From Lingula anatina (lineage: Eukaryota > Animalia > Brachiopoda): a DNA stretch of 64,000 nt. The first letter of the stretch is position 1; the number at the start of each line of letters is the position of its first letter. Below the pieces are notes generated by a model that was not told where the DNA came from, ran no database searches, and worked only from the letters and a program-made list of their open reading frames with translations. This document shows positions 12,101 to 64,000 of the stretch, one piece after another. Both the position numbers and the translations under genes were made by a program. The DNA is taken from the NCBI GenBank assembly GCA_051362555.1, contig CM120640.1, positions 23,980,225 to 24,044,224 on the forward strand. Reading direction: 5' to 3'.

Positions 12101-15100
12101 CCTCCCTTTCACATATTCAGCCTCTTCCTGGGTACTGTTTCCTTTGTCTGAAACATTGAGATCAATTACAAAGTTTCTTTGCCCCTGATAAATGCTCAAA
12201 ACATTAGGAAAGATATAGTTTTTTGCATTTTTGCAAAATGCATGTAATATGTGAAGTTCAAAGTTGATATCTATAATGTAAAGCAGACTTGCTAAGCTAA
12301 ATTTTTATATTAATCTCTTGGCAATGCAGCTTGGAAAATATTTAAATGTGAACATATTGCTACCTTTATAATTATTCTCCCTATACTGTGCCATCAGACT
12401 CAGTAAAGTTTGTGACTTCTGGACATTTTCTTCTGGGTTAGATCCAATGGTCAGCAGTATCTTGACCATCACAGATCCTTGCTCTACAATCTTAGCAGCA
12501 ATGTCCCCCAATTTTCTGCTTAGATCAGCCTGTGAAAAAAGTGGACGAAGATTCTGAATACTGAATCAATTACCTAAAAACATGATATAAAATATAGTTT
12601 CTGACAATTGTGTCAAACAAAATAAGTTCATTTTCCGTTTTTGTCAAGGGCATTTATATTACTATATCTTTGGTAAAAGGCATTTCAGCAAAAAAACAAC
12701 AAAAAATCAAAAGTATGTAAAAATAAAGCTGCAATGTATGTGAGACATCAAAGTAAGATCCATAAAAGATAATTCAGTTATCACCACATCCCAGGGCCAT
12801 ATCTGAGAACTTCCACATTAATGCCTGATAAAAACATAACCATTAAACAATGCTCAATAATCCATTTTATTAGGCTGGTTGAAATTATCAGCTATGAACT
12901 ACAAATCAATGGTTAGCTCAAACTGTAGCATCTGCATGCCTCCCTACATTGACAGTCCTATCAATTATCTGGTTTACTTAATCAATACAAAATAATGCTC
13001 ATTTGGAGCACTGGGAGTCCATAACTTGATGCACTGCACATAGAAAGTTGCTTTGCTGTTTACTCACTAAGCAGTATTTGCATTCACGTAATGTACAGAC
13101 AGAAGTAAACCTGAGCCGAGGGATTCTAAGGATGCAGATCTGCATGTTTATGACTGTTGTTGTTTAATTGCACACTTTAGATTACTTACAGGGTTAGACA
13201 CAGTTTGTGTGATGTACGGACCTCTGAATAGAATCAGAGCAGAATAACTTGCACATTTTATAATTTATACAAAATTATCAGTTTTACCATCATTTATTTT
13301 AAATTTGTACTTGTAATTCAGATCAGTTAAATAAAATAAAAACTTTCCATCCACAATTTCAACATTCTAAAAATATAACAATACTAAAATTATAATTTTT
13401 ACAAAGACATTAATATCAGCTTTTTATTCAAAAATATTCCACTAAATTGCAAGAAAAATTTCAGAGAAAAAAAAATATCAGGCACTTCTGTTGTGCACCA
13501 TGGTTTTATAGAACACCCCCACATTAGACTGTCCATTTCAGGATTAATTTCTCTAGCAAACACGAAAATTGCATTGATTTTGCAGAGTTCTCCTCAATGC
13601 CAATGCTTCAAAATCACTTTCCCTAATCCTTTAAACTCAGCCGGCAGACAAAATCTATCATTGATCATAAGTAACCAATGGTTATCGCTTAGAAAATTTC
13701 ATGCTAAAACACTTTTCACTGACTTATTACTGAGTACCAAGCAATACTACACATAAAATCAGTTGACAGCCATGACCACTAGCAGTTGCAGCACAAAGCA
13801 GAGGAAGCGCAACACAATTTTAATTTCAAGAATATTTAGAACTGAATTGTTGTCATTATATGAAATATGGTAAGTCTTTCTGTCTCTCCAGTCTAGCTTT
13901 AAAGTATTAACTACAGTGTATTTCTGCAAACAACTATCTGGTACTATGTCAGGACAACAACCTAAAATCTCGGAAGCCTAATATTATTCTGAAGGTGAAT
14001 GCTTCCATAAATACATAGAGGCTTTTCAAAGCAGAATTTATTTAAGGTCTTAACCTAATTTTGTTCTTTGAAATTTCAGCTAACAAAAAGCCAATTCTGT
14101 TCAAAAGGAAACTGTGCACTTCTAAGAAGTCTTAAAATGTGATCACTTCACTTGATCATTTCCTTTGGTGTCAATGAAAACCCCAATATTCCAAGCTTGG
14201 CATTTACATTAAATAACCATGGTACAACACACAGCACCATGTATACACAACCTTCAGAGAATTACTCAAATATTTTCTAAGTTGCCAATGTGTCAAAAAG
14301 AATAACTTCTTTCTCTTTCAGAAGGATGACCAAGAATTGCATTTGAGACTAAGGGACCACATGACACTTGGCAGCGAATAGGAATCAATGGATTAGTGAG
14401 AGGCTCGGACTGATGAGAAGGACTACCAATGTAATTAACTGCCTCAACTAACCTAACAGTTACAATACACAAAGGACAAAAAGACGTTAGACTGAAAATA
14501 GTGCTTGGAAACTGCTTAGCACACCTCATTAGAACCAGTCAGAAATGCTATTCATGTTCTTACTTAAAGGATTTGAACGGAAAAGGTAAGAACAGTTTCA
14601 AACTAGCAGCATGACAACGGTACATCAGATTTTCATTTTGCAGAGATAACATCAGACTTCATGGGGAAAAGGAAACAATTTCTACAAATGATCATCATTT
14701 GATTACAAAACGACAGTTTTTTTATGTAGAAGAAAAAGAACAGGGAGATTTTTTAAAAACTTGTGAAGTAAAAAATTATTTTGAAGATAACAATGTCGTC
14801 TGTCCACTATAATGGTACTGGCATTCGTCATAAAGAAACCATAGAACCAGGACGCCTCACAGAAGCAGTTGTCCTCATCATCATAGCATCTGTTGGGGTT
14901 GTTGGAAATATCAGCTCTTTTGTCTCCATGATTGTGGTGAAAAGACTACGTAAATCCTCTAACGCTTTCATGGCTCATCACTGCATTCTGGACCTTGTGA
15001 AGTCTGCATACTGCATTCCTTTTGCACAGAGTGTTTTGACTTCTCTACGTCCTCGACTTTGCAACATCATGGGAAGTTCTTACATCATATTCATCACTAC

Positions 15101-18100
15101 TTCAGCATTCAACCTGTTAGCAATGGTTGTGAACGAAGCTTACCAGAGCAGTGACAAGAGCTTAGGTGTCCATCTTAAACATGAAGGCAACAGGTACTGT
15201 GTTGTCTTTGGTATATGTATTATATGGCTTGCAAGCATCATATTAAACTTGGGAGTGGCAATCTTACCGGGTAATCCAGACTTTGATGAACATGTTGGAA
15301 TATGCATCTTTGTGTATGGTCTGACTAAAAATTATATCCTTCATGTTCTATGGATTGCACTGGTCTCCCTGGCCATCATTCTAACAGTCATGCACCTTAG
15401 ACGTCTGCACCAGGACATAAAGAAAAGATCTTATTACAGAACTGCTTCACTGGTCAGGGCTACTCTCATGATTGACCCCATGGTGGACGATACTCCCGAT
15501 CTCCAGGCCGAGAAACAGAAAGAGCAAGTCAAACTTTTGGAAAAATATAGCCTGAAACGCTTGTACATTCTTATGGCCATGACTATGCTGTTTGTAATGT
15601 ACTGGTACCCACTTTTCATGCTCACAGTACTGGACAGAGATTTCTTGGCACCAGACATGGCGTATAAAGTGTTAACATTATTTGCGTGGAGCAACTCCAC
15701 TGTGACTCCATTCATGTACTGGTTCTACAACAAGGAAAACTGTTGCTGCAGACGAGATTCTGAGCAATCTATTCTATTTCGTAACATGAAATATCTGTGC
15801 AATTACTTTGACCTGGATGCCTCCATGGTAGAGATGAACCCTGCCCATGCAAACACCGAGAATCTCGAACAACAGGAGACAACATTCATTGAACTTGGAA
15901 ATCCCCACTCTGGAATTCTCAACCATTATTTTGCAACAGCAGATAGAAAACAACCAAGGAGGACAGTTTCATTTGAGAGACCAAGTAGTCCAACCAAAAA
16001 GATGGTCATTGTGAATGCAAACAGGCGCCACACCATTGCCTCTCCTAAAATGCCTCACAAGGAACTGACCAACCAGAATCAAGACATGCATGCCAGGCGA
16101 AGTCAACTGCATTTGGACTTAAAAACTGACCACTGCAGTAATCAAACAGGTAATGCCACAGGAGTATGAGACATTATTTACGAAAAGAACATTCTTTAGT
16201 TTAAAATCAAAATGAGTTTTTATAAAGCAAAATAAGTGTACACACATTCTGTGTAAAAATTGTCACAAATGGGCATTTTCTTTTTTGAAGTAAATAAATA
16301 TAAGATTACATAACTTTGCCCAATATAAGTATATAGCACATCATAAAAATGTAAATAGAATGAGTTTGCATCGATCATAAATGGGACTTTTCATAGCTGT
16401 ACCACAGTGCAGTGCCTATTTTAAGCATATGATATGAGTAGTTTAAAAATGGCATGAGTAAACAGTACCTTTGTTTGTGGAAGTTTTGATTTCCTGAATA
16501 GGTATTATTAATAAGCAAAATAAAAAATATATGAAATTTGCTTCTATTTCTAGTATTTATACTTCAAACACAAAAGAGTCTTTAATGATTTTATATAATC
16601 CCGTGTTCTGTAAATAGTGTTTTCGTGCAACTTCAGATTCTCTGAAATTTCATCTCCTAATCCTGGGGATTATCCTCGTTATATAACAAACGTCCTCCTC
16701 AGCTGGTCTCAGCACAGCCACTTCAGACAATCAACATACCACCCTTGCCAGTGGATTGGATTTGCCTTTTGGTTCTGAAACTATCTATAAGCAGACAGCC
16801 AAACATTGGAAATTAATTATCATTGATTTCTGGGTCATTAGGCTGATTACACTTTGCTGTAAAGTGCTGTCGCTACTTGAGAATCCACGCATGACTAGAG
16901 ACCCTAACAGTTGTGCCAATACTATTGCCTCTACTTGGAAGGATTTACCATAAATTCAGTTTGATTTTTATCTTTTCGTGTGTCAAGATCAATTCCCTGA
17001 TGAAAGTTTAATGCTGAAACATAAGATAACAAATTATGTTAATTGTTCTTTGGAACATAAGAACTGAGATAGGATAAAAACTAACAGGATCGGATCTTTA
17101 ATTTTTGAGAAATAACTACATGTTGAGGAAAAAAAAACAGTAGACTAAAGGCTCAAAGACTCAAAGACATTTTCATCAAAATTCATTATTCTTTGATCTA
17201 GTAGCATCAGAGGCTTCCATTCTGACAAAACAAGAAGCTGATCCTTCACATGAGACAGCAACAATGTTCCCAGAGCAACCAAGAAATTAGTATCATTAAA
17301 AGTTTGGCGACCCATGGGTGCATACTTTACAGCAAAGGTCTGAAATGTCACACAGAGGAATAAATGCACCAAACCCAAATCAATGAAAAGTAACAGTCTG
17401 TTTTCTATGATGTAGTGCCATTGATCCTGCTACAAAGCAGATGCTTCGACAATTACAGTGGAGAGAAATTAAAAGCTAAAGACTCCCTTTTTTGTCAATT
17501 GATGGATGGGTCTACCTAGATTTTTTTCTATAACAAAGGCAGATACCAGAAGTGAAGCAGAATGAAATTAATATGCTTCTTAAGTTCTAAAGAAGTTTTT
17601 TCATCAATATCTGACACATCCATTCTGCTTTGCAAAGCTTTTTTCTTTTTTTTTTCCCCACACAGCACAGCATAGTCTTTTCTCTAAAACAACAAAAAAA
17701 AAATTGCTTGGGGAAATTTACCCCCCCCCCCCCCCCCCCCCAACCACACACACACACACACTGTTCAATATTCCTCAGAACAAACCAATCAGTCTTTTAC
17801 ATATCCTTCATTTGAAAAAAAATCAATACTCCAAATAAAAATGCAAGCATTTACTGTTCAAGGAAACATTAGCAGTCTTGTATTCTGAAACAGATACAGG
17901 AAATTTAATATTACCTGCTCAAACCCTCCAAGAAGTTCTGTGGTGTCCATTGCACTGTTCATAGCCATCACTTGAAGCTTATGTCCACTGAGCTGAGCCA
18001 AGAGCTTCACAAGACTGGTCTTACCACTAGATGCTGGGCCAACCTGGAAGATTTGGGCATTTTTCAGTCAAGTGAAAAAAGAAAGCACGTGTTCAGACTT

Positions 18101-40404: not shown

Positions 40405-42147
40405 TCATGCATTTTTTTTCTTTCTGAATTTCTTGGCTCCCGCCTCAAAGTCATCTTTGGTCAGTCTGTATCCCCAATGCTGTAAGGTCTGCCTCACTAC
40501 AGGTGACACAGCAAAATTATCATAGCTACAACCAGTGTTAACACATTTGGATATAAGGTTCCCCTTCCATCGTCCAGTCTGACCAGCACACCTCAACCAG
40601 CGTCCAATCTGCCGGGCATCATCTACAGTCCGCCTCCCTTGGTAAAACCTAAAATTGTTGTGCAAACACTGTTAAACACTAAACAAGTTTTGACTATTCT
40701 GACTGTCAATTATTTGCAATGATAATAGATATTGAAAATAAGAGTACATATTTACATCATTTCTTTTTGTTACTGATGGGTGTGACACATTTATTAAATC
40801 ATTTCTCCAAACATTTTATTGTAAATCACATTGTGATCATGATCACACTGACAACAAGACATTTTACCTGCAGTACCATTGGAACCAACCATATGGATCT
40901 TGTTTATGCATCCATCCACTACTCTCCCACATCTCAAGACTTCCACCACATTTCACTTTATAGGTGTTCACTTTCTCACTGTAAGTTGGAGAAGACACCT
41001 GCAAATCATTTAGTTAAACAAAAAAAAATTAATTGTCATAGGCATTAAGTAAGCATAGGCATTTTGTGGGACAATATAAAGATGAAATAACTGAAAAGAT
41101 GCTATATCTATCTGGGCACTTATTAAAGAATACTGATAATGTTGCATGATGGTAAACTTACTCAAAAAACAGCAATGGCACTGTTCTAGACACAGACAAA
41201 ACTACACCTACCTGCTTTCCGATATTGAGTCCTGCAAGCCAGTCTGATGGAAGTTCTTTCCAAACTCCTGAGTAACTTTTACCTACATTTAAATAAACTC
41301 AATTTATAGCCATGTTAACTGTGAAATGAAATGATTCTATTTACAGCTTAGGGTTATGGTAGCAATTTTTTTGGTGTTAGACAAATAACAACCTTTCAAC
41401 CAAATTTGTGAAATATAAATATTTTAAGCAAAAGTAAATAATTTACAAAACTCCTCAATAATCATCAATACTTCAGCTAGACTTTTGAAGACACTTGTTA
41501 CTGTGTTATACTTTGTAGCTACATGTACCTTTGACAATTATACAATTATTGCTTTTCTGTCTTTAATCACTATACTCACCTGTTACAGATGACTTGATAG
41601 GTCTGAAATATGTCCCTCCAAAGCTCCCAGCTTGAAGAACTTCTTTTGGTGTCATGTTTGGTTGAAATTCAGGCCAATCTTCAAACACAAGCACATCTTT
41701 TTTGTTTCTTGTAGGCAATGGGGCTGTGAAGCTTATTTCTCCAACAGTCTAGATAAATGAAAATAAAAACTTCATTCCTGTTTCTTTAAAGTATCACAAC
41801 AGAGTGAAATACATATTATGTCATTTCAACAGCTTAATATACTTCCATTGATTTTTGTAAATGTTCTTTATTGAAATGTGACAAAACGCAAGAAAGAGAA
41901 GGAGTTCAAGTTTATAGTAAAAGAGTACCAGTATATACTAGTATAACAAAGAGATAAATGAACTTACCTCCTGGTTGGTTTTAGGGTCTAATTCTTTTGG
42001 ATAAGGTCCTTTGTTCTTAGTTATTCCTGTGCTCCTACTTGCACCCTTGCTCACACTGGTGGTATCTGAGATTTTCCGTTTCTTTGCCTTTGTCTCACTG
42101 CTTGGTGGAGCTCTGGGCTTTTCTGAGAGTTTCCTCTTTTGTGGCAT
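40405..42147 (-). CDS. Conserved uncharacterised Trp-rich protein, 264 aa, 5 coding exons
   Basis: Exons 42147-41968, 41748-41580, 41282-41212, 40998-40868, 40648-40405; all GT-AG and in frame (795 nt). Core FQPNMTPKEVLQAGSFGGTYFRPI...NTYKVKCGGSLEMWESSGWMHKQDPYGWFQWYCRFYQGRRTVDDARQIGRW...SPVVRQTLQHWGY. Probable non-coding first exon ending at 42515 (AG|GTGAGT). Confidence 0.9.
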
Positions 42148-42514
42148 ATTGCAGATCTGAGTGACGAAAGGGGAACTGTATTTAAATTCTGCAAACATTA
42201 TAAAAATAGCAATGAATTTCACAAAGTAAAATCAATTTGAAATGAGTAGGTAAAAATCTGCTTAGTTTTAAAATTGAATGCAAGCATTGGTACCCAACTA
42301 AGCGAAGCCTTTGAAATAAATATTCCTCCACAAACTTCTTCAGTGGGTCACATTTGGGTAGGTTTCATATAATTAAACTGATCTGGACTTTTACTTACAT
42401 ATTATTTATAAATATTATCACAGTCTACACGAGTGTATCTACTGGGCCTACTGCTACAGTTGGTACGTGTATCGTTTACAATGTTCCACAAAATTTCAAA
42501 GTAGTACAACTCAC

Positions 42515-52269: not shown

Positions 52270-55060
52270 CATATTGCCGTCACCTGCATCTGTCGTCGTC
52301 ACTGGCACCGTGCACTTTTAGCGTAAACACGATAAGTGGAAGACAGTTTTACCTTTTGGCTTTATATTTACAGAGCTGATGAATATTCATTAAAAGTGGG
52401 TGAATTTCGAAAATTGGCATAATTGGGCCATTATTTTAGCAGTTATGCTGTTTTTTCATTTTTCAGCATATATTCAACACTGTAAACACATTTCAAGGCA
52501 AACCGATACGCCTGTTGTCATGAAACTCACAGGAGTGCTTAATCTTACTAAAGTACAGGTCAAGTTCGAAAATAAACTCGATTGGTTCAGTTTTGATGCA
52601 ATTATGCCTTGTTTTGTTTATAAGTGCTTTTACCTCTGATTCAATTCATAGGCTGCATTCACATCGAGTTGAGCCATGGCTCTACAAAGCCACGTCCTAA
52701 ATATGGCGGATGTACATGAAAGGAAAACCGCTTATCTTTTAATAGTCTTTCCACCCCTCACACGTTTCCCCATGCGTCGTCCCTGCGGGAAACAGTCATT
52801 AAATCTCTGCTCTATTGGGACGACACATGGGGAGGTGAGTGAGAGGCGGAGAGACTATTAAAAGATTAGGCGATTAGTGTCAAAAATGGAAAAAAAGCAA
52901 ATCATTGCAGTTTGTCAGATTTAATCATTTACTATGTTCAGAATCTCTATTGATATTTTCTTTATCTCAACAAAAGTACAGTAAATTAATTGTTTTATGT
53001 AAAAAAAGTGTAAAAATGGAAATAAACCCATTTCAGTACAGTTCTGTCTAATTTACATTTTTTATATTTTTAAGGTGACTTTGAAGTTCAATGGGCCTGA
53101 CCACCTTTGCCACTCACTTTTTATGTACAGACACAGATGTGTCTGTACATATAGCCGTCACCTGCGTCTGTCGCCGCCATTGCCGTTGGCATGCACTTTT
53201 ACCGTAAACACGATAAGTGGAAAACCATTTTACGTTTTGGCTTGAAACTTACAGAACTGATGAATATTCATAATACGCAGGTCAAGTTCCAAAATCAGCA
53301 TGATCGGGCCATATTTAGGAAAGTTATGCTTTTTTTCACTTTTTTCCGCATGTAAGCAACACCATAAACACGATAAGTGAAAAAAATATTTTACCTTTTG
53401 GCTTGAAACTTACAGAACTGATGAATATTCATAATACCCAGGTCAAGTTCGAAAATCAGCATGATCAGGCCAATTTTACAGAAGTTATGCTGTTTTTTTT
53501 TCACTTTTTTCAGCATATATGCAACACCTATAACACATTTTAGGGAAAATTGATTGGCCAATTGTCTTGAAATTCACAGGAGTGATCAATGTTACTGAAA
53601 TACAGATTCAGTTTTGAAAATAAGCTTGATCAGTTAAGTTTTGGTGATGCCTTTTTTTTTTTTTTTTTGTATATAAGTGTTTTTTCCTCAAATTTAATTC
53701 TCAGACATGTTAACAGTCATTTTTGAACTAATTAGATATGTAAAGTTGTTCTTTTGACATTTTCTGCATCTTAACAATATTGTTAGTTGATTATTTAAAA
53801 ATGATGTTTAACCTGTTATTGTGTATTGTGTAATAAAGTGTCAAAAATGGGAAAAAAATCATTCATTATGTTCAGAATCTCAGAATGGAGCAAATTGGAC
53901 ATTTAAAATTTTTCCATTGATATTTTTCTTATGTCAACAATTTTTTAGTTGATCATTTAAAAATGACAGTAAATTGATTATTATGTTTTATGTAAAAAAA
54001 AGTGCTGAAAATGGGAAGAAAATTATTTCAGTACAGTTCTCTCTTGTTTACATTTTGGCATTTTGAAGGTGTGACTCTTAACTTCCATGGCCTCGAAGAC
54101 CTTTTCATGTCACATTTCTGAATATCCATGACACTTTTATTTTATTATTAAAAATTGATGGTCATCATACTGTTAAGAATTATGTAATATTGCATCAAAA
54201 TGTAAAAAAAAAAAACTATTTTGGACACTGATGACCATCAAGGGAAAACCATGTTACTTATGGTACTAACTGAAAAGTGCAGCATGTGTTGGAAAATCAG
54301 TGTGATTGTTTTCTGTTCTGTAAGCAATGCAGTTCTGTAGAGTGCAATATGATGGCACTGTATGGATGGCGGTCAGTATGAAATTGTCCATTGGTTAATC
54401 ACTAATTAAATTAAGGTCTATAAAGTCACTTGCCTAGTTATTAATTATGTACAGACACAGATGTGTCTTTACATATTGCCATCACCTGCGTCTGTCATCG
54501 CCGTCGTCGCCGTCACCGTCGCCGTGCACTTTCCTTGTAAACACGATAAGTGGAGGGCAGTTTTACTTTTTGGCTTTATATTTACAGAGCTGATGAATAT
54601 TCATAAAACGCAGGTCAAGTTAAAAAATCAGCATGATCAGGCCATTACTGTAGAAGTTAAGCTGTTTTTATTATGTACAGACACAGATGTAGTCACCTGC
54701 GTCTGTCGTCGTCGTTGATGTTGCCGTTGCCGTTGGCGTGCACTTTTACCGTAAACACGATAAGCAGAAAACAGTTTTACGGTTTGGCTTGAAACTTACA
54801 GAACTGATGAATATGTATAATACACAGGTCAAGTTTGAAAATCAGCGTGATCGGGCCATTTTTAGGGAAGTTATGCTGTTTTTTTCACTTTTTTCAGCAT
54901 ATATGCAACACCGTAAACACGATAAGTGGAAAATGGTTTTACCTCTTGGTTTGAAACTTACAGAACTGATGAATATTTATAATACGCAGGTCAAGTTTGA
55001 AAATCAGCTTGATTGGGTCATTTTTAGGGAAGTTATGCTTTTTTTTCACATTTTCTGATT
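52270..55060 (+). mobile_element. Cluster of non-autonomous Helentron/HINE (DINE-1/pearl-like) elements with internal ~145-160-bp tandem units
   Basis: Copies at ~52270-52610, ~53118-53650, ~54445-54665, ~54667-55060 (fragment ~58050-58200). Each has a T-rich start, palindrome ATGTACAGACAC-agat-GTGTCTGTACAT (53123-53150), a (GTC/GCC)n microsatellite, then repeats CGTAAACACGATAAGTGG...GAAACTTACAGAACTGATGAAT...GGTCAAGTTCGAAAATCAGC...AGTTATG. Confidence 0.75.
52729..52872. mobile_element. GC-rich imperfect palindromic element (~50-bp arms)
   Basis: ATCTTTTAATAGTCTTTCCACCCCTCACACGTTTCCCCATGCGTCGTCCC mirrors GGGACGACACATGGGGAGGTGAGTGAGAGGCGGAGAGACTATTAAAAGAT. Confidence 0.75.
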
Positions 55061-55450
55061 CAGTTCTTAGGCATGTTAACAGTCCCATTATTGAACTAAT
55101 ACAATATGTGAAAGTGTTTTTTTGACATTTCCTGCATCTTTACAACATTGTTAGCTGATTATGGAAAAATGATGGTAAACTTGTTATCGTGCATTGTGTA
55201 ATGAAGTGTCAAAAATGGAAATAAACACATATCATTGCAGTTTGTCAGATTCAATCATCCACTATGTTCAGAATCTCAGAATGGAGGAAATTGGACATTT
55301 AATACTGTTCTATTGATATTTTTCCCATCTCATCAATTTTCTTAGTTGGTCATATAAAAATGACAGTAAACTGTTAATTTTGTTTTATGTTAAAAAAGTG
55401 TTAAAAATGGAAATAAACCCATTTCAGAAAAGTGCGGTCTTGTTTACATT

Positions 55451-56860
55451 TTGGCATTTTCAAGATGTGACTTTGAAGTTCCATGGGCCTGAAGACCTTT
55501 GCTAGTCACATTTTCTGAATATTCATGATACTAATATTTTATTATTAAAAATTGATGGTCATTATGCTGTTAAACATTATGTAATATTGCATCAAAATTT
55601 GAAGAAACCCCTATTTTGGGCACTGCTCCCATGATGACCATTTAAGGAAAATCATGTCACTTACTGTTCTCAAACTTACAGGAAAGAAACATGGGACTAA
55701 AATACAGCTTCAGTAGTCAATGCAGTCTGTTTGGTAATTTTTTCTGGCAGTTAAACAGTTTTTTTTTGTGAAAATTTAATTTTTCACATATTGGCATTTT
55801 CAAGGTGTGACTTTGAAGTTCCATGATCCTGAAGACCTTTGCTTGTCACGTTTTCTGAATGTCCATGTTACTAATATTCTATTATTAAAAATTGATGGTC
55901 ATTATGCTGTTAAACATTATGTAATATTGCATCAAAATTTGAAGAAACCCCTATTTTGGGCACTGCTCCCATGATGACCATTTAAGGAAAATCATGTCAC
56001 TTACTGTTCTCAAACTTACAGGAAAGAAACATGGGACTAAAATACAGCTTCAGTAGGCAATGCAGTCTGTTTGGTAAATTTTTCTGGCAATTAAACAGTT
56101 TTTTGTGAAAATTTAATTTTTCACATATTGGCATTTTCAAGGTGTGACTTGGAACCTCCACGGGCTTGAAGACCCATGCTAGTCACATTTTCTGAAAATC
56201 CATGATACGTATATTTTATTATTAAAAATTGATGGTCATTATGCTGTTAAGTATTATGTAATGTTGCATCAAAATAGAAGAAAACACAATTTTTGGTGCT
56301 GCTGCCATGATGACCATTATGGGAAAACCGTGTTACTTATGACTGTCAAACTTTCAAAAAAGAAACACAGGACTAAAATGCAGTTGGAAAAGCATTCTCA
56401 TTGGCTTCTTTTTCTGGAAGTTATACATTTTAGTGAAATATTCATTATTATCGTGTTGGCATATTCATTGTGGGACTTGGTAGCTCCCATGGACATGAAG
56501 CCGAATGGTAATCAAATTTTCTAAATGTCCATGCTATTTATAGTCAATAATCAAAAATTGGTGATAATTATTCTATAATTTATTATGTAATGTTACATCA
56601 AAATTGACAAAAATATTTTTGCACTGCTACTGCAAACATTATGAAAAGAAAACTGTGTTACTTATTATTATTTTTAACTTACAAGTATGATTTTTCGGAT
56701 TGGCATGCAGTTCAAATTAGAAAGCCAGGTCAATTGGGTTATCTTTTATTATTGAATTCATGCAATTTTGTGTGAAATTTTCATTTTTCTCATTCTGGCA
56801 CTTTCAAAGTATAAACTTGAACTCTGATGGGCCTGAAGCCTTATGCCTTTACTTTACAAA
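55451..56860. repeat. ~340-bp tandem repeat, two near-identical copies followed by decaying copies
   Basis: Units start TTGGCATTTTCAAG..GTGACTTTGAAGTTCCATG at ~55451, ~55791, ~56128 and, degenerate, ~56795; related copies at ~54055, ~57518 and ~58710. Confidence 0.85.
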
Positions 56861-57194
56861 TTAAAATTTGATGTTGACTGTGCAGTTAAACAATGTATTT
56901 TTGCATCAGAATTGGTAGTCTCCTATTTTGTGCATTATTGTTTTGTGCTTTTCTTAAGATGTGACTTATGGGCCTGAAAGACCTTTGAGAGGGTCAGTCT
57001 GTAAATTTCCCTTGGGTATCACTTAGCTAAGTTTAGAGTTATAAAGTCATTTGCCTAATTAATAGGCCATTAAATGAGATTATATAAAGCACACTTGATG
57101 AAAACTCCCAAAGGTTAAGCTCTCTGCTAGATTAATAATAAGTAAGCAGTGATAATTATGCAGGTAAATTTTGTTTAATATTGCAAATAAGTTT

Positions 57195-57198
<4 letters not shown>

Positions 57199-57232
<34 letters not shown>
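57199..57232. repeat. (AT)n microsatellite
   Basis: Seen directly. Confidence 0.95.
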
Positions 57233-57234
<2 letters not shown>

Positions 57235-57276
57235 AAAAAGATTAAAAGTTTGAATAGCAGCATCATTGGAATTATA

Positions 57277-57482
57277 TTTACCTCTGCCAAGGAGGTTATG
57301 TTTTGACCCCTGTTTGTCTGTCATCAACATCACTCAAAAATTTACGGACCGATTTTGATGAAATTTTCAGGAACTGATTAGTTTTTGGTGGTGGTCCGGA
57401 TCAATAATCAATCAATAATCAATAAAAATCAACAATTGCTGTCTTGGCAGAGGTCTGCGCTCTTGGAATGCTTTTTTAGTTT
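57277..57482 (+). mobile_element. Compact DINE-1/Helentron-type non-autonomous element
   Basis: Sub-terminal inverted repeat ACCTCTGCCAAG (57280-57291) / CTTGGCAGAGGT (57443-57454), 5' short hairpin ACCTC..GAGGT, GTCTGT-type microsatellite, 3' hairpin remnant, T-rich insertion site. Absent from the paralogous block at ~58660-58710. Confidence 0.8.
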
Positions 57483-58420
57483 TGTTATGTTTTCCTTTTT
57501 AATTTTTTCTCAAACTCTGGCATTTGTGACTTTTAACTCTCATCCGCCTGTGGCTCTGCACATTTTCTGTATTTCCACATAAGCAGTTGTATTGTTTTTT
57601 TATGTCTTTAAACATTATGTAATATTATTTTATGCACTGTCATCATTTTTCAAATATTGAGACTTTCATCATGAGAATTTGAACTCTCATGGTCCTGAAA
57701 CTGTAATCTTACCGAAGGGGTGGATTGAGACCATCTTCTGGGTCTTCCAGAAGACGGTCAGGTTATTAAGTTTATATTGACGGGTATCTATTTTTTTTCT
57801 GTTGGAAGACCATAAAAATGGAGGATGGATCAACATAGATACTTTGGAATACTGTCAGAAAATATCTCTGGGTCCGCTCCTGTTATTGACCATGGTACCT
57901 GTTGTGCATGATTAAAATTCAGTTTTGACTGACAGTGCTATTATAAGCATTATTTATTATTGCATCAAAATTGACAAAATTACCTATTTTGCATCTTTAT
58001 TTTCTGTTTTTTGTCTGTACATTTGACAGCTTTGCTTCCTTGTTTCACTTTTTAAGCATATATGCAACACTGTAAATATATTTCAAGGAAAACCGATAAG
58101 ACTGTTGTCATAAAACTCACAGGAGTAATCAATCTTACTAAAACGCAGGTCAAGTTCGAAAATCAGCATGATCGGGCCACTATTTTAATAGTTATGCTTT
58201 TTTAAAAAAACTTTTCAGTATATTTTTCAATTGGCCTTTTAATGACATTACATAAAACACTCGTTGAGATTTCCCTGTAAAGTCCCATAGGTTTAGCTCT
58301 CTTAACTGTGTCACATAATTAGGATTTGGTGATAATTATGCAGGTAAATGTTGTTTAATATTGCAAATTAATTTACAAAAGAAAAAAATGTGTGTTACGC
58401 CAACATTAATGCTATAGATG

Positions 58421-58588
58421 CAGGGGCGGATTCAGAGATATTTTCTGACAGTCTTCCAAATTATCTTTGTTGATCCATTGTTCATTTTTGACCGTCTTCC
58501 AACAGAAAAAATTAGATACCCGTCAATGTAAACTTGAAAATCTGACCGTCTTCCGGAAGACCCAGAAGACGGCCTAAATCCGCCCCTG
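58421..58588. mobile_element. 168-bp MITE with CAGGGG termini and 5-bp TSD (hAT5-like)
   Basis: Perfect 12-bp TIR CAGGGGCGGATT / AATCCGCCCCTG; AGATG duplicated at 58416-58420 and 58589-58593. Oppositely oriented copies at ~57716-57882 (degraded) and ~58913-58964 (truncated by the satellite). Confidence 0.85.
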
Positions 58589-58964
58589 AGATGAATAACA
58601 GTGCCTTATCTATCCTCAAACTCAATGGGGTTATTAATATCATGTTAACACATGTTAACAAGATTGAAAGTTTGAATAGCAGCTTTATTGGAATATTTTT
58701 TTCAAACACTGGCATTTTCAAGATGTGACTTTTTACTCCCATCCATTTCAACGTCTACACATTTTCTGTACTTCCACTTAAGCAGTTGTATAGGTATTTA
58801 TGTCTTTAAACATAATGTAATATTATTTTATGCACTGTTATCATTTTTCAAATATTGTGATTTTCATTATGTGAATTTGAACTCTTGTGGTCCTGAAACT
58901 GTAATCTTATTGCAGGGGCAAATTGAGACCGTCTTCTGAGGCTTCTAGAAGACGTCAGATTTTA

Positions 58965-61900
58965 ATGTCTGGGTGGGGTCGCTCATCATCTTCTTTGTCC
59001 TGTAAAAAGAAATGAAAAACAAGATTAGATTTTTTCAATTTACCCAACCTACAAAACCAAAAAAATTAAATTTACTAACCTTAGCTTGGATCCAAGGGTA
59101 AAGTCCATGTCCGGGTGGGGTCGCTCATCATCTTCTTTGTCCTGTAAAAAGAAATGAAAAATAAAAGATAAGATTTTTTTCAATTTAACCTTCCCACCAC
59201 CCCAGAAAAATGAAATTTACTAACCTTAGATTGGATCCAACAATGTAGTCCATGTCTGGGTGAGGTCGCTCATCATCTTCTTTGTCCTGTAAAAAGAAAT
59301 TAAAAACAAGATTAGATTTTTTCAATTTATTCATCCTACAACCCCAAAAAATGAAATTTACTAACCTTAACTTGGATCCAAGAGTGAAGTCAATGTCCGG
59401 GTGGGGTCGCTCATCATCTTCTTTGTCCTGTAAAAAGAAATGATAAACAAGATTACATTTTTTCAATTTACCCATCCTACAACCCCAAAAAAATTGAATT
59501 TACTAACCTTAGCTTGGATCCAAGAGTGAAGACCATGTCCGGGTGGGGTCGCTCATCAACTTCTTTATCCTGGAAAAAGAAATGTAAAACAAGATTAGAT
59601 TCTTTCAATTTACCCATCCTACAACCCCAAAAGAATAAAATTTACTAACCTTAGATTGGATCCAAGAATGAAGTCCATGTCCGTGTGGGGTTGCTCATCA
59701 TCTTCTTTGTCCTGGAAAAAGAAATGTAAAACAAGATTAGATTCTTTCAATTTACCCATCCTACAACCTCAAAAAAATGAAATTTACAAACCTTAGATTG
59801 GATCCAAGAGTAAAAACCATGTCTGGGTGGGGTCGCTCATCCTTAGTGTGGATCTAAGAGTGTAGTCCATGTCCGTGTGGGGTCGCTCATCATCTTCTTT
59901 ATCCTGTAAAAAGAAATGTAAAACAAGATTAGATTCTTTCAATTTACCCATCCTACAACCCCAAAAAATCAAATTTACTAACCTTAGATTGGATCCAAGA
60001 GTGAAGTCCATGTCTGTGTGGGGTCGCTCATCATCTTCTTTGTCCTGGAAAAAGAAATGAAAAACAAGATTACATTCTTTCGATTTACCAATACCATCAC
60101 CCCAAAAAAATGAAATTTACTAACCTTAGCTTGGATCCAAGAGTGAAGTCCATGTCCGTGTGGGGTCGCTCATCATCTTCTTCGTCCTGTAAAAAGAAAT
60201 GAAAAACAAGATTAGATTTTTTCAATTTACCCATCCTACAACCCCGAAAAAAAGAAATTTACTAACCTTAGCTTGGATCCAAGAGTGAAGTCCATGTCCA
60301 GGTGGGGTTGCTCATCATCTTCTTTGTCCTGTAAAAAGAAATGAAAAACAAAATTAGATTCTTTCAATTTACCCATCCTACAACCCCAAAAGAATAAAAT
60401 TTACTAACCTTAGATTGGATCCAAGAATGAAGTCCATGTCCGTGTGGGGTTGCTCATCATCTTCTTTGTCCTGGAAAAAGAAATGTAAAACAAGATTAGA
60501 TTCTTTCAATTTACCAATACCATCACCTCAAAACAATGAAATTTACTAACCTTAGCTTGGATCCAAGAGCGAAGTCCATGTCCGGGTGGGGTCGCTCATC
60601 ATCTTCTTTGTCCTGGAAAAAGAAATGAAAAACAAGATTAGATTCTTTCAATTTACCCATCCTACAACCTCAAAAAAATGAAATTTACAAACCTTAGATT
60701 GGATCCAAGAGTAAAAACCATGTCTGGGTGGGGTCGCTCATCCTTAGTGTGGATCCAAGAGTGTAGTCCATGTCCGTGTGGGGTCGCTCATCATCTTCTT
60801 TATCCTGTAAAAAGAAATGTAAAACAAGATTAGATTCCTTCAATTTACCCATCCTACAACCCCAAAAAAATAAAATTTACTAACCTTAGATTGGATCCAA
60901 GAGTGAAGTCCATGTTCGTGTGGGGTCGCTCATCATCTTCTTTGTCCTGGAAAAAGAAATGAAAAACAAGATTAGATTCTTTCAATTTACCAATACCATC
61001 ACCCCAAAAAAATGAAATTTACTAACCTTAGCTTGGATCCAAGAGTGAAGTCCATGTCCGTGTGGGGTCGCTCATCATCTTCTTCGTCCTGTAAAAAGAA
61101 ATGAAAAACAAGTTTAGATTTTTTCAATTTACCCATCCTACAACCCCCCAAAAAAGAAATTTACTAACCTTAGCTTGGATCCAAGAGTGAAGTCCATGTC
61201 CGGGTGGGGTTGCTCATCATCTTCTTTGTCCTGTAAAAAGAAATGAAAAACAAAATTAGATTCTTTCAATTTACCCATCCTACAACCCCAAAAGAATAAA
61301 ATTTACTAACCTTAGATTGGATCCAAGAGTGAAGTCCATGTCCGTGTGGGCTCGCTCATCAACTTCTTTATCCTGGAAAAAGAAATTTAAAACAAGATTA
61401 GATTCTTTCAATTTACCCATCCTACAACCCCAAAAGAATAAAATTTACTAACCTTAGATTGGATCCAAGAATGAAGTCCATGTCTGGGTGGGGTCACTCA
61501 TCCTTATTGTGGATCCAAGAGTGTAGTCCATGTCCGTGTGGGGTCGCTCATCATCTTCTTTATCCTGTAAAAAGAAATGTAAAACAAGATTAGATTCTTT
61601 CAATTTACCAATACCATCACCCCAAAAAAATGAAATTTACTAACCTTAGCTTGGATCCAAGAGCGAAGTCCATGTCCGGGTGGGGTCGCTCATCATCTTC
61701 TTTGTCCTGGAAAAAGAAATGAAAAACAAGATTAGATTCTTTCAATTTACCCATCCTACAACCTCAAAAAAATGAAATTTACAAACCTTAGATTGGATCC
61801 AAGAGTAAAGACCATGTCTGGGTGGGGTCACTCATCCTTAGTGTGGATCCAAGAGTGTAGTCCATGTCCGTGTGGGGTTGCTCATCATCTTCTTTATCCT

Positions 61901-64000
61901 GTAAAAAGAAATGTAAAACAAGATTAGATTCCTTCAATTTACCCATCCTACAACCCCAAAAAAATAAAATTTACTAACCTTAGATTGGATCCAAGAGTGA
62001 AGTCCATGTTCGTGTGGGGTCGCTCATCATCTTCTTTGTCCTGGAAAAAGAAATGAAAAACAAGATTAGATTCTTTCAATTTACCAATACCATCACCCCA
62101 AAAAATGAAATTTACTAACCTTAGCTTGGATCCAAGAGTGAAGTCCATGTCCGTGTGGGGTCGCTCATCATCTTCTTCGTCCTGTAAAAAGAAATGAAAA
62201 ACAAGTTTAGATTTTTTCAATTTACCCATCCTACAACCCCCCAAAAAAGAAATTTACTAACCTTAGCTTGGATCCAAGAGTGAAGTCCATGTCCGGGTGG
62301 GGTTGCTCATCATCTTCTTTGTCCTGTAAAAAGAAATGAAAAACAAAATTAGATTCTTTCAATTTACCCATCCTACAACCCTAAAAGAATAAAATTTACT
62401 AACCTTAGATTGGATCCAAGAGTGAAGTCCATGTCCGTGTGGGCTCGCTCATCAACTTCTTTATCCTGGAAAAAGAAATTTAAAACAAGATTAGATTCTT
62501 TCAATTTACCCATCCTACAACCCCAAAAGAATAAAATTTACTAACCTTAGATTGGATCCAAGAATGAAGTCCATGTCTGGGTGGGGTCACTCATCCTTAT
62601 TGTGGATCCAAGAGTGTAGTCCATGTCCGTGTGGGGTCGCTCATCATCTTCTTTATCCTGTAAAAAGAAATGTAAAACAAGATTAGATTCTTTCAATTTA
62701 CCAATACCATCACCCCAAAAAAATTAAATTTACTAACCTTAGCTTGGATCCAAGAGCGAAGTCCATGTCCGGGTGGGGTCGCTCATCATCTTCTTTGTCC
62801 TGGAAAAAGAAATGAAAAACAAGATTAGATTCTTTTAATTTACCCATCCTACAACCCCAAAAAAATAAAATTTACTAACCTTAGATTGGATCCAAGAGTG
62901 AAGTCCATGTCCGTGTGGGGTCACTCATCATCTTCTTTGTCCTGGAAAAAGAAATTAAAAACACGATTAGATTCTTTCAATTTACCAATACCATCACCCC
63001 AAAAAAATTAAATTTACTAACCTTAGCTTGGATCCAAGAGTGAAGTCCATGTCTGGGTGGGGTCGCTCATCATCTTCTTTGTCCTGTAAAAAGAAATGAA
63101 AAACAAGATTAGATTTTTTCCATTTACCCATCCTATAACCCCAAAAAAAATGAAATTAACTAACCTTAGATTGGATCCAAGAGTGAAGTCCATGTCTGGG
63201 TGGGGTCGCTCATCATCTTCTTTGCCCTGGAAAAAGAAATGTAAAACAAGATTAGATTCTTTCAATTTACCCATCCTACAACCTCAAAAAAATGAAATTT
63301 ACCAACCTTAGATTGGATCCAAGAGTAAAGACCATGTCTGGGTAGGGTCGCTCATCCTTAGTGTGGAACCAAGAGTGTAGTCCATGTCCGTGTGGGGTCG
63401 CTCATCATCTTCTTTGACCTGGAAAAAGAAATGTAAAACAAAATTAGATTTCTTCAATTTACCCATCCCAACACCCCCCAAAAAAAGGAAATTTCCTTAC
63501 CTTACATTGGATCCAAGAGTGTAGTCCATGTTTATGTGGGGTCCCTCATCATCTTCTTTGTCCTGTAAAAATAAATGAAAAACAAGATTAGATTCTTTCA
63601 ATTTACCCATCCTACAACCTCAAAAAAATGAAATTTACCAACCTTAGATTGGATCCAAGAGTGAAGTCCATGTCTGGGCAGGGTTGCTCATCATCTTCTT
63701 TGTCCCGTAAAAGGAAATGAAAAACAAGATTAGATTTTTTCAATTTACCCATCCTACAACCCCAAAAAAATGAAATTTACTAACCTTAGCTTGGATCCAA
63801 GAGTGAAGACCATGTCCGGGTGGGGTCCCTCATCATCTCCTTTGTCCTGTAAAAAGAAATGAAAAACAAGATTAGATTTGTTCAATTTACCAATACCATC
63901 ACCTCAAAACAATGAAATTTACTAACCTTAGCTTGGATCCAAGAGCGAAGTCCATGTCCGGGTGGGGTCGCTCATCATCTTCTTTGTCCTGGAAAAAGAA
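58965..64000 (-). repeat. 142-bp tandem satellite (~33 monomers plus six 50-bp short monomers); monomer has exon+intron architecture on the minus strand; continues past the right edge
   Basis: BamHI GGATCC sites at 59088, 59233, 59374, 59516, 59658, 59800 and onward. Short units marked at 59850, 60751, 61511, 61845, 62604, 63365. Confidence 0.97.

Follow-up and report, generated by a model that had tools for sequence, protein, structure and literature searches.

A tandem array of a short unit made up of one exon and one intron was studied at the right end of a 64,000-nucleotide stretch of Lingula anatina DNA (contig CM120640.1, positions 23,980,225 to 24,044,224). This whole stretch is called the window below, and positions are counted from its first letter. 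The array lies at 58965-64000 and is read on the minus strand. It was found that copies of this repeat family are spliced exactly in polyadenylated (polyA) RNA. The explanation that we favour, at a probability of roughly 0.55, is that minus-strand transcripts of a Lingula repeat family with a 142-bp exon-plus-intron unit are spliced at GT-AG borders, that the resulting low-level RNA is likely non-coding and short-lived, and that the array is mostly neutral.

Splicing of repeat-family copies in polyA RNA

Of nine RNA runs chosen by species label, seven polyA runs (all but X6 and X9) were used, and 6-26% of each was read. Exon joints were assessed on one period of the array (one of its 33 full units), that of the exon at 63022-63083, in runs X1, X2, X3 and X8. 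Depth at the array end, i.e., at the last unit and its flank, was assessed in X1, X4, X5 and X7. An exact joint of exon end to exon start was carried by 7 of 67 aligned reads in X1 (three read starts), 2 of 43 in X2 (two starts), 9 of 44 in X3 (six starts) and 0 of 9 in X8. The joint leads from 63082 to 63021 and so goes back 62 positions; three letters fit on either side of it, an ambiguity that the sequence predicts. All 18 joint-bearing reads, obtained in three of the four runs, were oriented as minus-strand RNA, assuming the usual stranded library. An earlier note made from the sequence alone had proposed a search for the exon-exon junction, which was found here in family copies, and had offered a spliced multi-exon non-coding RNA as its second reading, which these reads support for the repeat family.

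The depth of X1 across the same period was 36-64 in the exon and 16-23 just inside the donor side. At the last unit, one-sided depth in this run was approximately 30-34 in the exon, 11-12 in mid-intron, 26 in the partial exon and 3 past the array end. Unspliced sense reads were common in X1.

Splicing was also seen for diverged members of the family. Two more joints in X1 (3 and 4 reads) brought diverged family exons onto the same acceptor, and among the loose ends listed at the acceptor, ends of diverged family exons were recognised in X1 (11, 7 and 5 reads) and in X2 (3 reads). A distinct sub-family exon was present in all four runs (4, 5, 9 and 3 reads; agreement 0.96-0.99; loose ends at 63064) and absent from the window, and four loose-end motifs were absent from the window at up to three mismatches. 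Diverged sub-families are therefore present beyond the window, and family copies range from 100% to roughly two-thirds identity, an estimate made by eye on loose ends of 30 letters. As a separate observation, the three between-run differences of the sub-family exon are synonymous in a frame that the window exons close with two TGA codons; with three sites, this is not significant.

One donor loose end in X2 (4 reads, agreement 1) continues into non-family sequence, which is a candidate unique downstream exon. A candidate for the junctions to unique exons sought by the earlier note was seen in this one run; the sequence that follows the donor is absent from the window. The abundance of the family in RNA was low, with 0.8-5.4 aligned reads per million records. 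Short reads show exon pairs joined, and the number of exons per molecule is beyond their reach.

Anatomy and history of the array

The features of the array and of its end are as follows.

58965-64000, minus strand: tandem array of the exon-plus-intron cassette, 33 full units and a partial last exon, continuing past the right end of the window
63022-63083, minus strand: representative 62-nt exon, whose end is joined to its start in family RNA reads
62942-63021, minus strand: representative 80-nt GT-AG intron with the branch-motif A at -26, a pyrimidine tract and no stable fold
63307-63418, minus strand: 112-nt exon with a 50-bp internal duplication, first of six
62546-62657, minus strand: 112-nt exon, second of six
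61787-61898, minus strand: 112-nt exon, third of six
61453-61564, minus strand: 112-nt exon, fourth of six
60693-60804, minus strand: 112-nt exon, fifth of six
59792-59903, minus strand: 112-nt exon, sixth of six
63705-63707, minus strand: the sole mutated acceptor, CGG for CAG
61707-62799, minus strand: first 7-unit block of the higher-order repeat (block A), 1093 bp
60613-61706, minus strand: second 7-unit block of the higher-order repeat (block B), 1094 bp, aligned to block A with 5 mismatches and 1 gap
58965-58999, minus strand: last exon, 35 nt and then a breakpoint
58898-58963, strand unassigned: the final 66 bp of a 168-bp miniature inverted-repeat transposable element (MITE), joined directly to the end of the array

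On the minus strand, 34 acceptors run from 63988 to 58999, and 33 full units are followed by the 35-nt partial exon, in agreement with the original count of more than 30. The visible array is about 5 kb long, and the count of units is a lower bound because the array leaves the window. The unit of 142 bp consists of a 62-nt exon and a GT-AG intron. The expectation that length variation would be confined to the intron, whose length ranges from 79 to 83 nt, did not hold: 27 of the 33 exons are 62 nt long, and a 50-bp duplication inside the exon extends the other six to 112 nt, giving units of 192 bp.

The introns have U2-type anatomy, with GT-AG ends, a pyrimidine tract and a branch motif. GT is present at all 33 donors (GTTAGT at 27, GTTTGT at 3, GTTGGT at 2 and GTAAGG at 1), CAG ends 32 of the 33 introns and CGG the remaining one, and the CTAA branch motif with its A at -26 occurs in 30 of 33. 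The donor, acceptor and branch point proposed from the sequence are thereby found throughout the array. Splice sites were scored with approximate weights. On this scale, 26 of 2000 dinucleotide shuffles of one unit, taken on either strand, matched its combined donor and acceptor score, and 5 of 2000 did so with the branch motif as well; among genomic tiles from the rest of the window, the respective counts were 10 and 1 of 827. Array acceptors scored 5.3-10.1, compared with -4.4 to 5.0 in six introns of neighbouring genes, and most array donors scored 3.6, compared with 2.3-9.0 in these introns. The usual donor is thus middling, which would fit partial intron retention. A diverged single copy of the unit was not found elsewhere in the window.

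The copies in the window are without coding constraint. Every chain of two 62-nt exons hits a stop, as the earlier note had stated for two consecutive exons, and all frames are closed within two exons when these are spliced in order. The three AUGs of the exon are followed by a stop after 16, 15 and 29 codons. Over 39 exon copies, with distinct alleles counted, the ratio of non-synonymous to synonymous polymorphism (pN/pS) was 0.84, 0.66 and 1.02 in the three frames, with 0.84 in frame 0, and diversity was 0.092 in the exon compared with 0.102 in the intron. The changes of CGA to TGA noted near 61495, 61829, 62588 and 62922 were confirmed as TGA at all four places, but three of them lie in the duplicated half and are not stops in the frame opened by the acceptor.

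Searches for relatives were negative. A 107-aa frame that runs across exons and introns gave 0 matches among two candidates of 58-188 aa in a protein search and no true homologue among 1.84 billion representatives; the three matches obtained were discarded, being sums of weak similarities to unrelated repeat proteins (28-33% identity). Protein searches of the kind recommended for finding a parent gene thus returned no true homologue. The idea behind them, that satellite DNA arose by amplification of a real gene's exon-intron unit, agrees with the anatomy and with the higher-order repeat, but these searches did not find the parent gene. Neither metagenome contigs nor viral contigs yielded a match in pattern scans (0 each), which is what animal DNA should give.

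Several kinds of RNA payload were also considered. A structured RNA was rejected, since Rfam gave 0 matches at the gathering score (12 weak ones were all far below it) and folding of the exon, the intron and the unit was no better than that of shuffles. A mirtron was rejected on the folding of 3 of the 33 introns (z 0.81, 0.35 and 0.15). A small nucleolar RNA (snoRNA) payload was rejected as well: there was neither an Rfam match nor a D box, and the sole CTGA in the 5.2 kb examined is at 58958, outside the units.

The earlier note had overlooked two features, the 7-unit higher-order repeat of 1093 bp and the end of the array in a truncated MITE. Mean pairwise exon identity is 0.915 (528 pairs). 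Blocks A and B, i.e., units 9-15 and 16-22, are identical at 1088 of 1093 aligned bases (99.5%), and a looser third block comes next. As in satellite DNA, monomers of one family are arranged head to tail, and copies of the multi-monomer period are more alike than adjacent monomers. The higher-order repeat points most simply to recent unequal crossing-over. The array has also undergone a deletion of its own at the DNA level, which takes out 92 nt and not 80. In an array as young as this, many positions of the intron do not vary at all, and for that reason selection on the splice sites cannot be shown from the window.

The MITE at the end of the array is a 168-bp element with 12-bp terminal inverted repeats, and full copies of it lie at 58421-58588 and 57716-57882, within 1.3 kb of the array end. 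Since the last exon is fused to a fragment of this element, the array end is a breakpoint and not a terminal exon. Accordingly, the partial exon was rejected as a designed terminal exon on the basis of this fusion and of the fall in X1 sense depth from 26 to 3. The MITE itself was very abundant in polyA RNA reads on both strands, with mixed flanks and many other insertion sites; therefore, it is a high-copy element carried in many transcripts. In run X7, more than 1,200 reads join 58380-58396 to 58589 and skip the MITE, and the composite repeat at 58300-58909 was covered several hundred-fold. These joints point to strong transcription, in that sample, of a related copy elsewhere that lacks the MITE.

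Source of the RNA and competing explanations

In the explanation favoured here, a short exon and its intron would have been duplicated within an older spliced transcript. Since acceptor, donor and branch point all lie within the unit, every copy that arose would have been a working exon, self-sufficient for exon definition. Unequal crossing-over or slippage would then have amplified and homogenised the unit in the manner of a satellite, giving rise to the 7-unit higher-order repeat. Exported RNA, with AUGs that stop within 15-29 codons upstream of many junctions, would probably be removed by nonsense-mediated decay, and the remaining RNA would stay nuclear or partly spliced. The copies in the window would represent a young expansion, probably mostly neutral and perhaps weakly expressed or silent.

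A number of observations weigh against this explanation, and most of them concern which copies make the RNA. Among the variants listed, an exon variant found in 0 of 39 window exon copies was present in 33 of 52 X1 sense reads. Conversely, a variant carried by 18 of 39 window copies was seen in 0 of 35 reads in X1, 0 of 25 in X2 and 4 of 25 in X3; for X1, the binomial probability is approximately 4e-6, assuming 20 independent starts. Identity to the window of at least 99% was reached by just 3 of 163 aligned reads. It follows from the mismatch of the read variants to the window that most of the RNA comes from other copies. It may stem from other loci, from array units that lie beyond the window or from a population that has diverged; Lingula assemblies are described as approximately 0.73 similar to each other (PMC13425148).

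Further points on the same side concern the reads themselves. All three joint-bearing runs come from a single study, X7 is flat across exon and intron at a depth of approximately 5-9, and the depth in X4 and X5 is approximately 2. The strand bias in X2 and X3 alone gives a P of approximately 0.025-0.07. In these two runs intron depth is flat and near equal on both strands (sense approximately 9, antisense approximately 8), and the antisense depth may be due to DNA carry-over or to antisense transcription. An intronless DNA copy or a single-exon circle may yield the same joint, RNA reads alone having been examined. Finally, the insertions and deletions in 6 reads of X1 sum to a possible 63-nt exon that would be in frame.

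It is unlikely that the family encodes a functional long non-coding RNA (lncRNA) with repeat exons, in which dozens of purine-rich 62-nt modules would form a multivalent scaffold, nuclear like FIRRE or 116HG, with copy number tuning its valency. Such a role is consistent with strand-specific, exactly spliced polyA RNA, with the same splice geometry in diverged family exons and with one distinct sub-family exon common to all four runs. It is also consistent with the loose intron ends of three runs, which share the same branch-point 13-mer and differ further upstream (mixed consensus, agreement 0.68-0.9). However, the RNA is of very low abundance (0.8-5.4 reads per million), the exon is no better conserved than the intron and is without structure, and the array in the window is broken off at a MITE.

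A broader proposal, of comparably low probability, is that there is a family of spliced satellites that spread as satellites do, with selection keeping each monomer splice-competent. Their product would be a non-coding RNA in which dozens to hundreds of near-identical 62-nt modules follow one another, and the introns would carry no payload. Selection would act either on splicing itself or on a multivalent RNA that serves as a locus-tethered sink for spliceosomes, exon-junction proteins or SR proteins, with copy number as a dial.

We are similarly doubtful that the array is a frameshifted offshoot of a coding gene, i.e., a dead amplified copy, with 62-nt exons, of a parent elsewhere that has 63-nt phase-0 exons, each encoding a 21-residue acidic repeat. 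Run X1 shows one inserted nucleotide at each of 63024 and 63028 (6 reads each) together with one lost at 63038 or 63041 (3 reads each), a net gain of one that would bring the exon to 63 nt if it is otherwise free of insertions and deletions. Read by hand, the matching loose ends (11 and 5 reads) contain no stop in the frame ending in phase 0, and 3 reads have an exon start that is 3 nt shorter. Lingula is also described as having lineage-specific acidic, repetitive shell proteins (PMC13425148). This support comes, however, from one library and 4 read starts, and exon lengths vary freely (-2, -3, 0), with a 2-nt deletion in 7 reads and a diverged variant of 62 nt in 4 reads. Within the conserved sub-family exon, each of the three differences is non-synonymous when read in frame 0. 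No repeat protein with the motif was found among the 1.84 billion representatives, and L. anatina proteins are present in a related 90% database.

Less probable again is that the array in the window is silent satellite DNA and that the joints come from another locus only, from an intronless DNA copy or from back-splicing of a single exon. The read variants mostly mismatch the window copies, the equal sense and antisense intron depth in X2 and X3 is what DNA carry-over gives, and a joint that goes back 62 positions is the same for a circle as for exon n joined to exon n+1. Against this, the joints coincide exactly with the GT and AG that had been predicted in advance and occur in sense reads only, a DNA deletion within the array removes 92 nt and not 80, and diverged exons share the same acceptor joint. 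Moreover, 4 reads of X3 carry a window-type allele, and the cleanest of them shows 0 other differences.

Dscam-type clusters consist of tandem homologous, mutually exclusive exons with intact splice sites. The suggestion that the array is such a bank of coding exons, belonging to a minus-strand gene that starts to the right of the window, can practically be discarded: it accords with the tandem homologous exons, their intact splice sites, a frame that is open in most single exons and the one donor joined to non-family sequence (X2, 4 reads), but the family exons are spliced to one another and not one per mRNA, they break the frame with a length that is not a multiple of 3, frame 0 shows no coding constraint (pN/pS 0.84), whole blocks are duplicated so that many copies are identical, all six 112-nt exons carry a stop, and the minus strand from 58965 to the SEC63-like gene described below holds no downstream coding exon that could be recognised.

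Neighbouring sequence, related systems and meaning

Midasin-like AAA exons occupy approximately 1-36 kb of the window on the minus strand, and a SEC63-like gene ends at approximately 50.6 kb; the array starts 8 kb beyond its stop, on the opposite strand. The names midasin and SEC63 are presumptive, having been recognised from the translations. Pfam matches were confirmed for AAA_5, Ist1 and 7tm_1 only among the window genes. An IST1 exon is 98% identical to a Lingula anatina protein, compared with approximately 70% for the next-best matches. An intronless frame of 465 codons for a G protein-coupled receptor of the rhodopsin family (14772-16169, plus strand; 7tm_1, E 2e-12) is nested opposite the midasin-like gene; just 6 homologues of it were found (38-53% identity), one cluster of which includes a Lineus longissimus protein. 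A small five-exon gene at 40408-42150 on the minus strand stands head-to-head with the SEC63-like gene and tail-to-tail with IST1, and two of its frames that were scanned gave 0 Pfam matches.

The region from 52 to 59 kb is a mosaic of repeats. Within 52270-58213, one family of 161-170 bp is present in seven copies beside a palindromic 30-mer and a CGT/CGC-rich motif, a combination that may resemble mollusc Helentron-type elements. A 340-bp tandem repeat is located at 55440-56383, and an inverted repeat of 53 nt (83% complementary, 33-nt loop) at 52731-52869 is possibly a second small MITE.

Tandem units of exon plus intron are familiar from LPA KIV-2 and NBPF/Olduvai, where they arose via unequal crossing-over, measure kilobases and keep the frame, whereas the Lingula array closes all frames within two exons. 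In the SNORD116 and SNORD115 host genes (116HG and 115HG) of the Prader-Willi locus, repeated units lie in one long transcript, and their non-coding exons are spliced into lncRNA (PMC3792690, PMC5054931). Repeated non-coding exons are likewise spliced together in Lingula, but in 116HG and 115HG each intron holds a box C/D snoRNA, whereas the 80-nt Lingula intron is without an Rfam match, a D box or a fold, and the unit is just 142 bp. For the lncRNA FIRRE, the RRD repeat is described as making up 7 of 13 exons in human and 11 of 23 in mouse, as a discontinuous local repeat with a tested role in nuclear retention (PMC4820808). Both are cases of one repeat forming exons of a non-coding RNA, of which joined pairs are seen in Lingula. 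Unlike in FIRRE, exon and intron are repeated together, head to tail, in at least 34 copies with a higher-order period; diverged sub-families lie outside the window, and the repeat is known from sequence and RNA reads alone.

Higher-order repeats and concerted evolution are described for satellite DNA (PMC11506328), and the human repeats ACRO138 and ACRO1 include a transcribed member, ACRO138 (PMC3847771, PMC8997349). The Lingula array resembles them in its monomer of approximately 140 bp, its head-to-tail order and its block-wise homogenisation. It differs in that its monomer is a working exon and intron; splicing monomer by monomer is not reported for the others in the portions available of these sources, and that of PMC3847771 does not describe human ACRO138 monomers as spliced. 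In the open-access literature, no account was found of this repeat or of a satellite spliced monomer by monomer; supplements to the Lingula genomes (repeat libraries, lncRNA tables) may list it.

Taken together, the repeat is real, is spliced at the family level and is likely non-coding, and its RNA likely has no job beyond being copied along. The reads give direct RNA evidence, at the level of the family, that a monomer of satellite size (142 bp), arranged in a higher-order period, can serve as a working exon and intron. Such arrays can be expected to be masked as repeats and overlooked in annotation, which serves as a warning. If the 63-nt variant proved to be coding, the family would represent a repeat-protein gene decaying into satellite DNA. 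The range of identity among family copies provides a natural series for asking whether selection keeps splice signals in non-coding repeats. The finding also links satellite evolution with the birth of multi-exon non-coding genes, since tandem amplification multiplies exons and no new splice site is needed.

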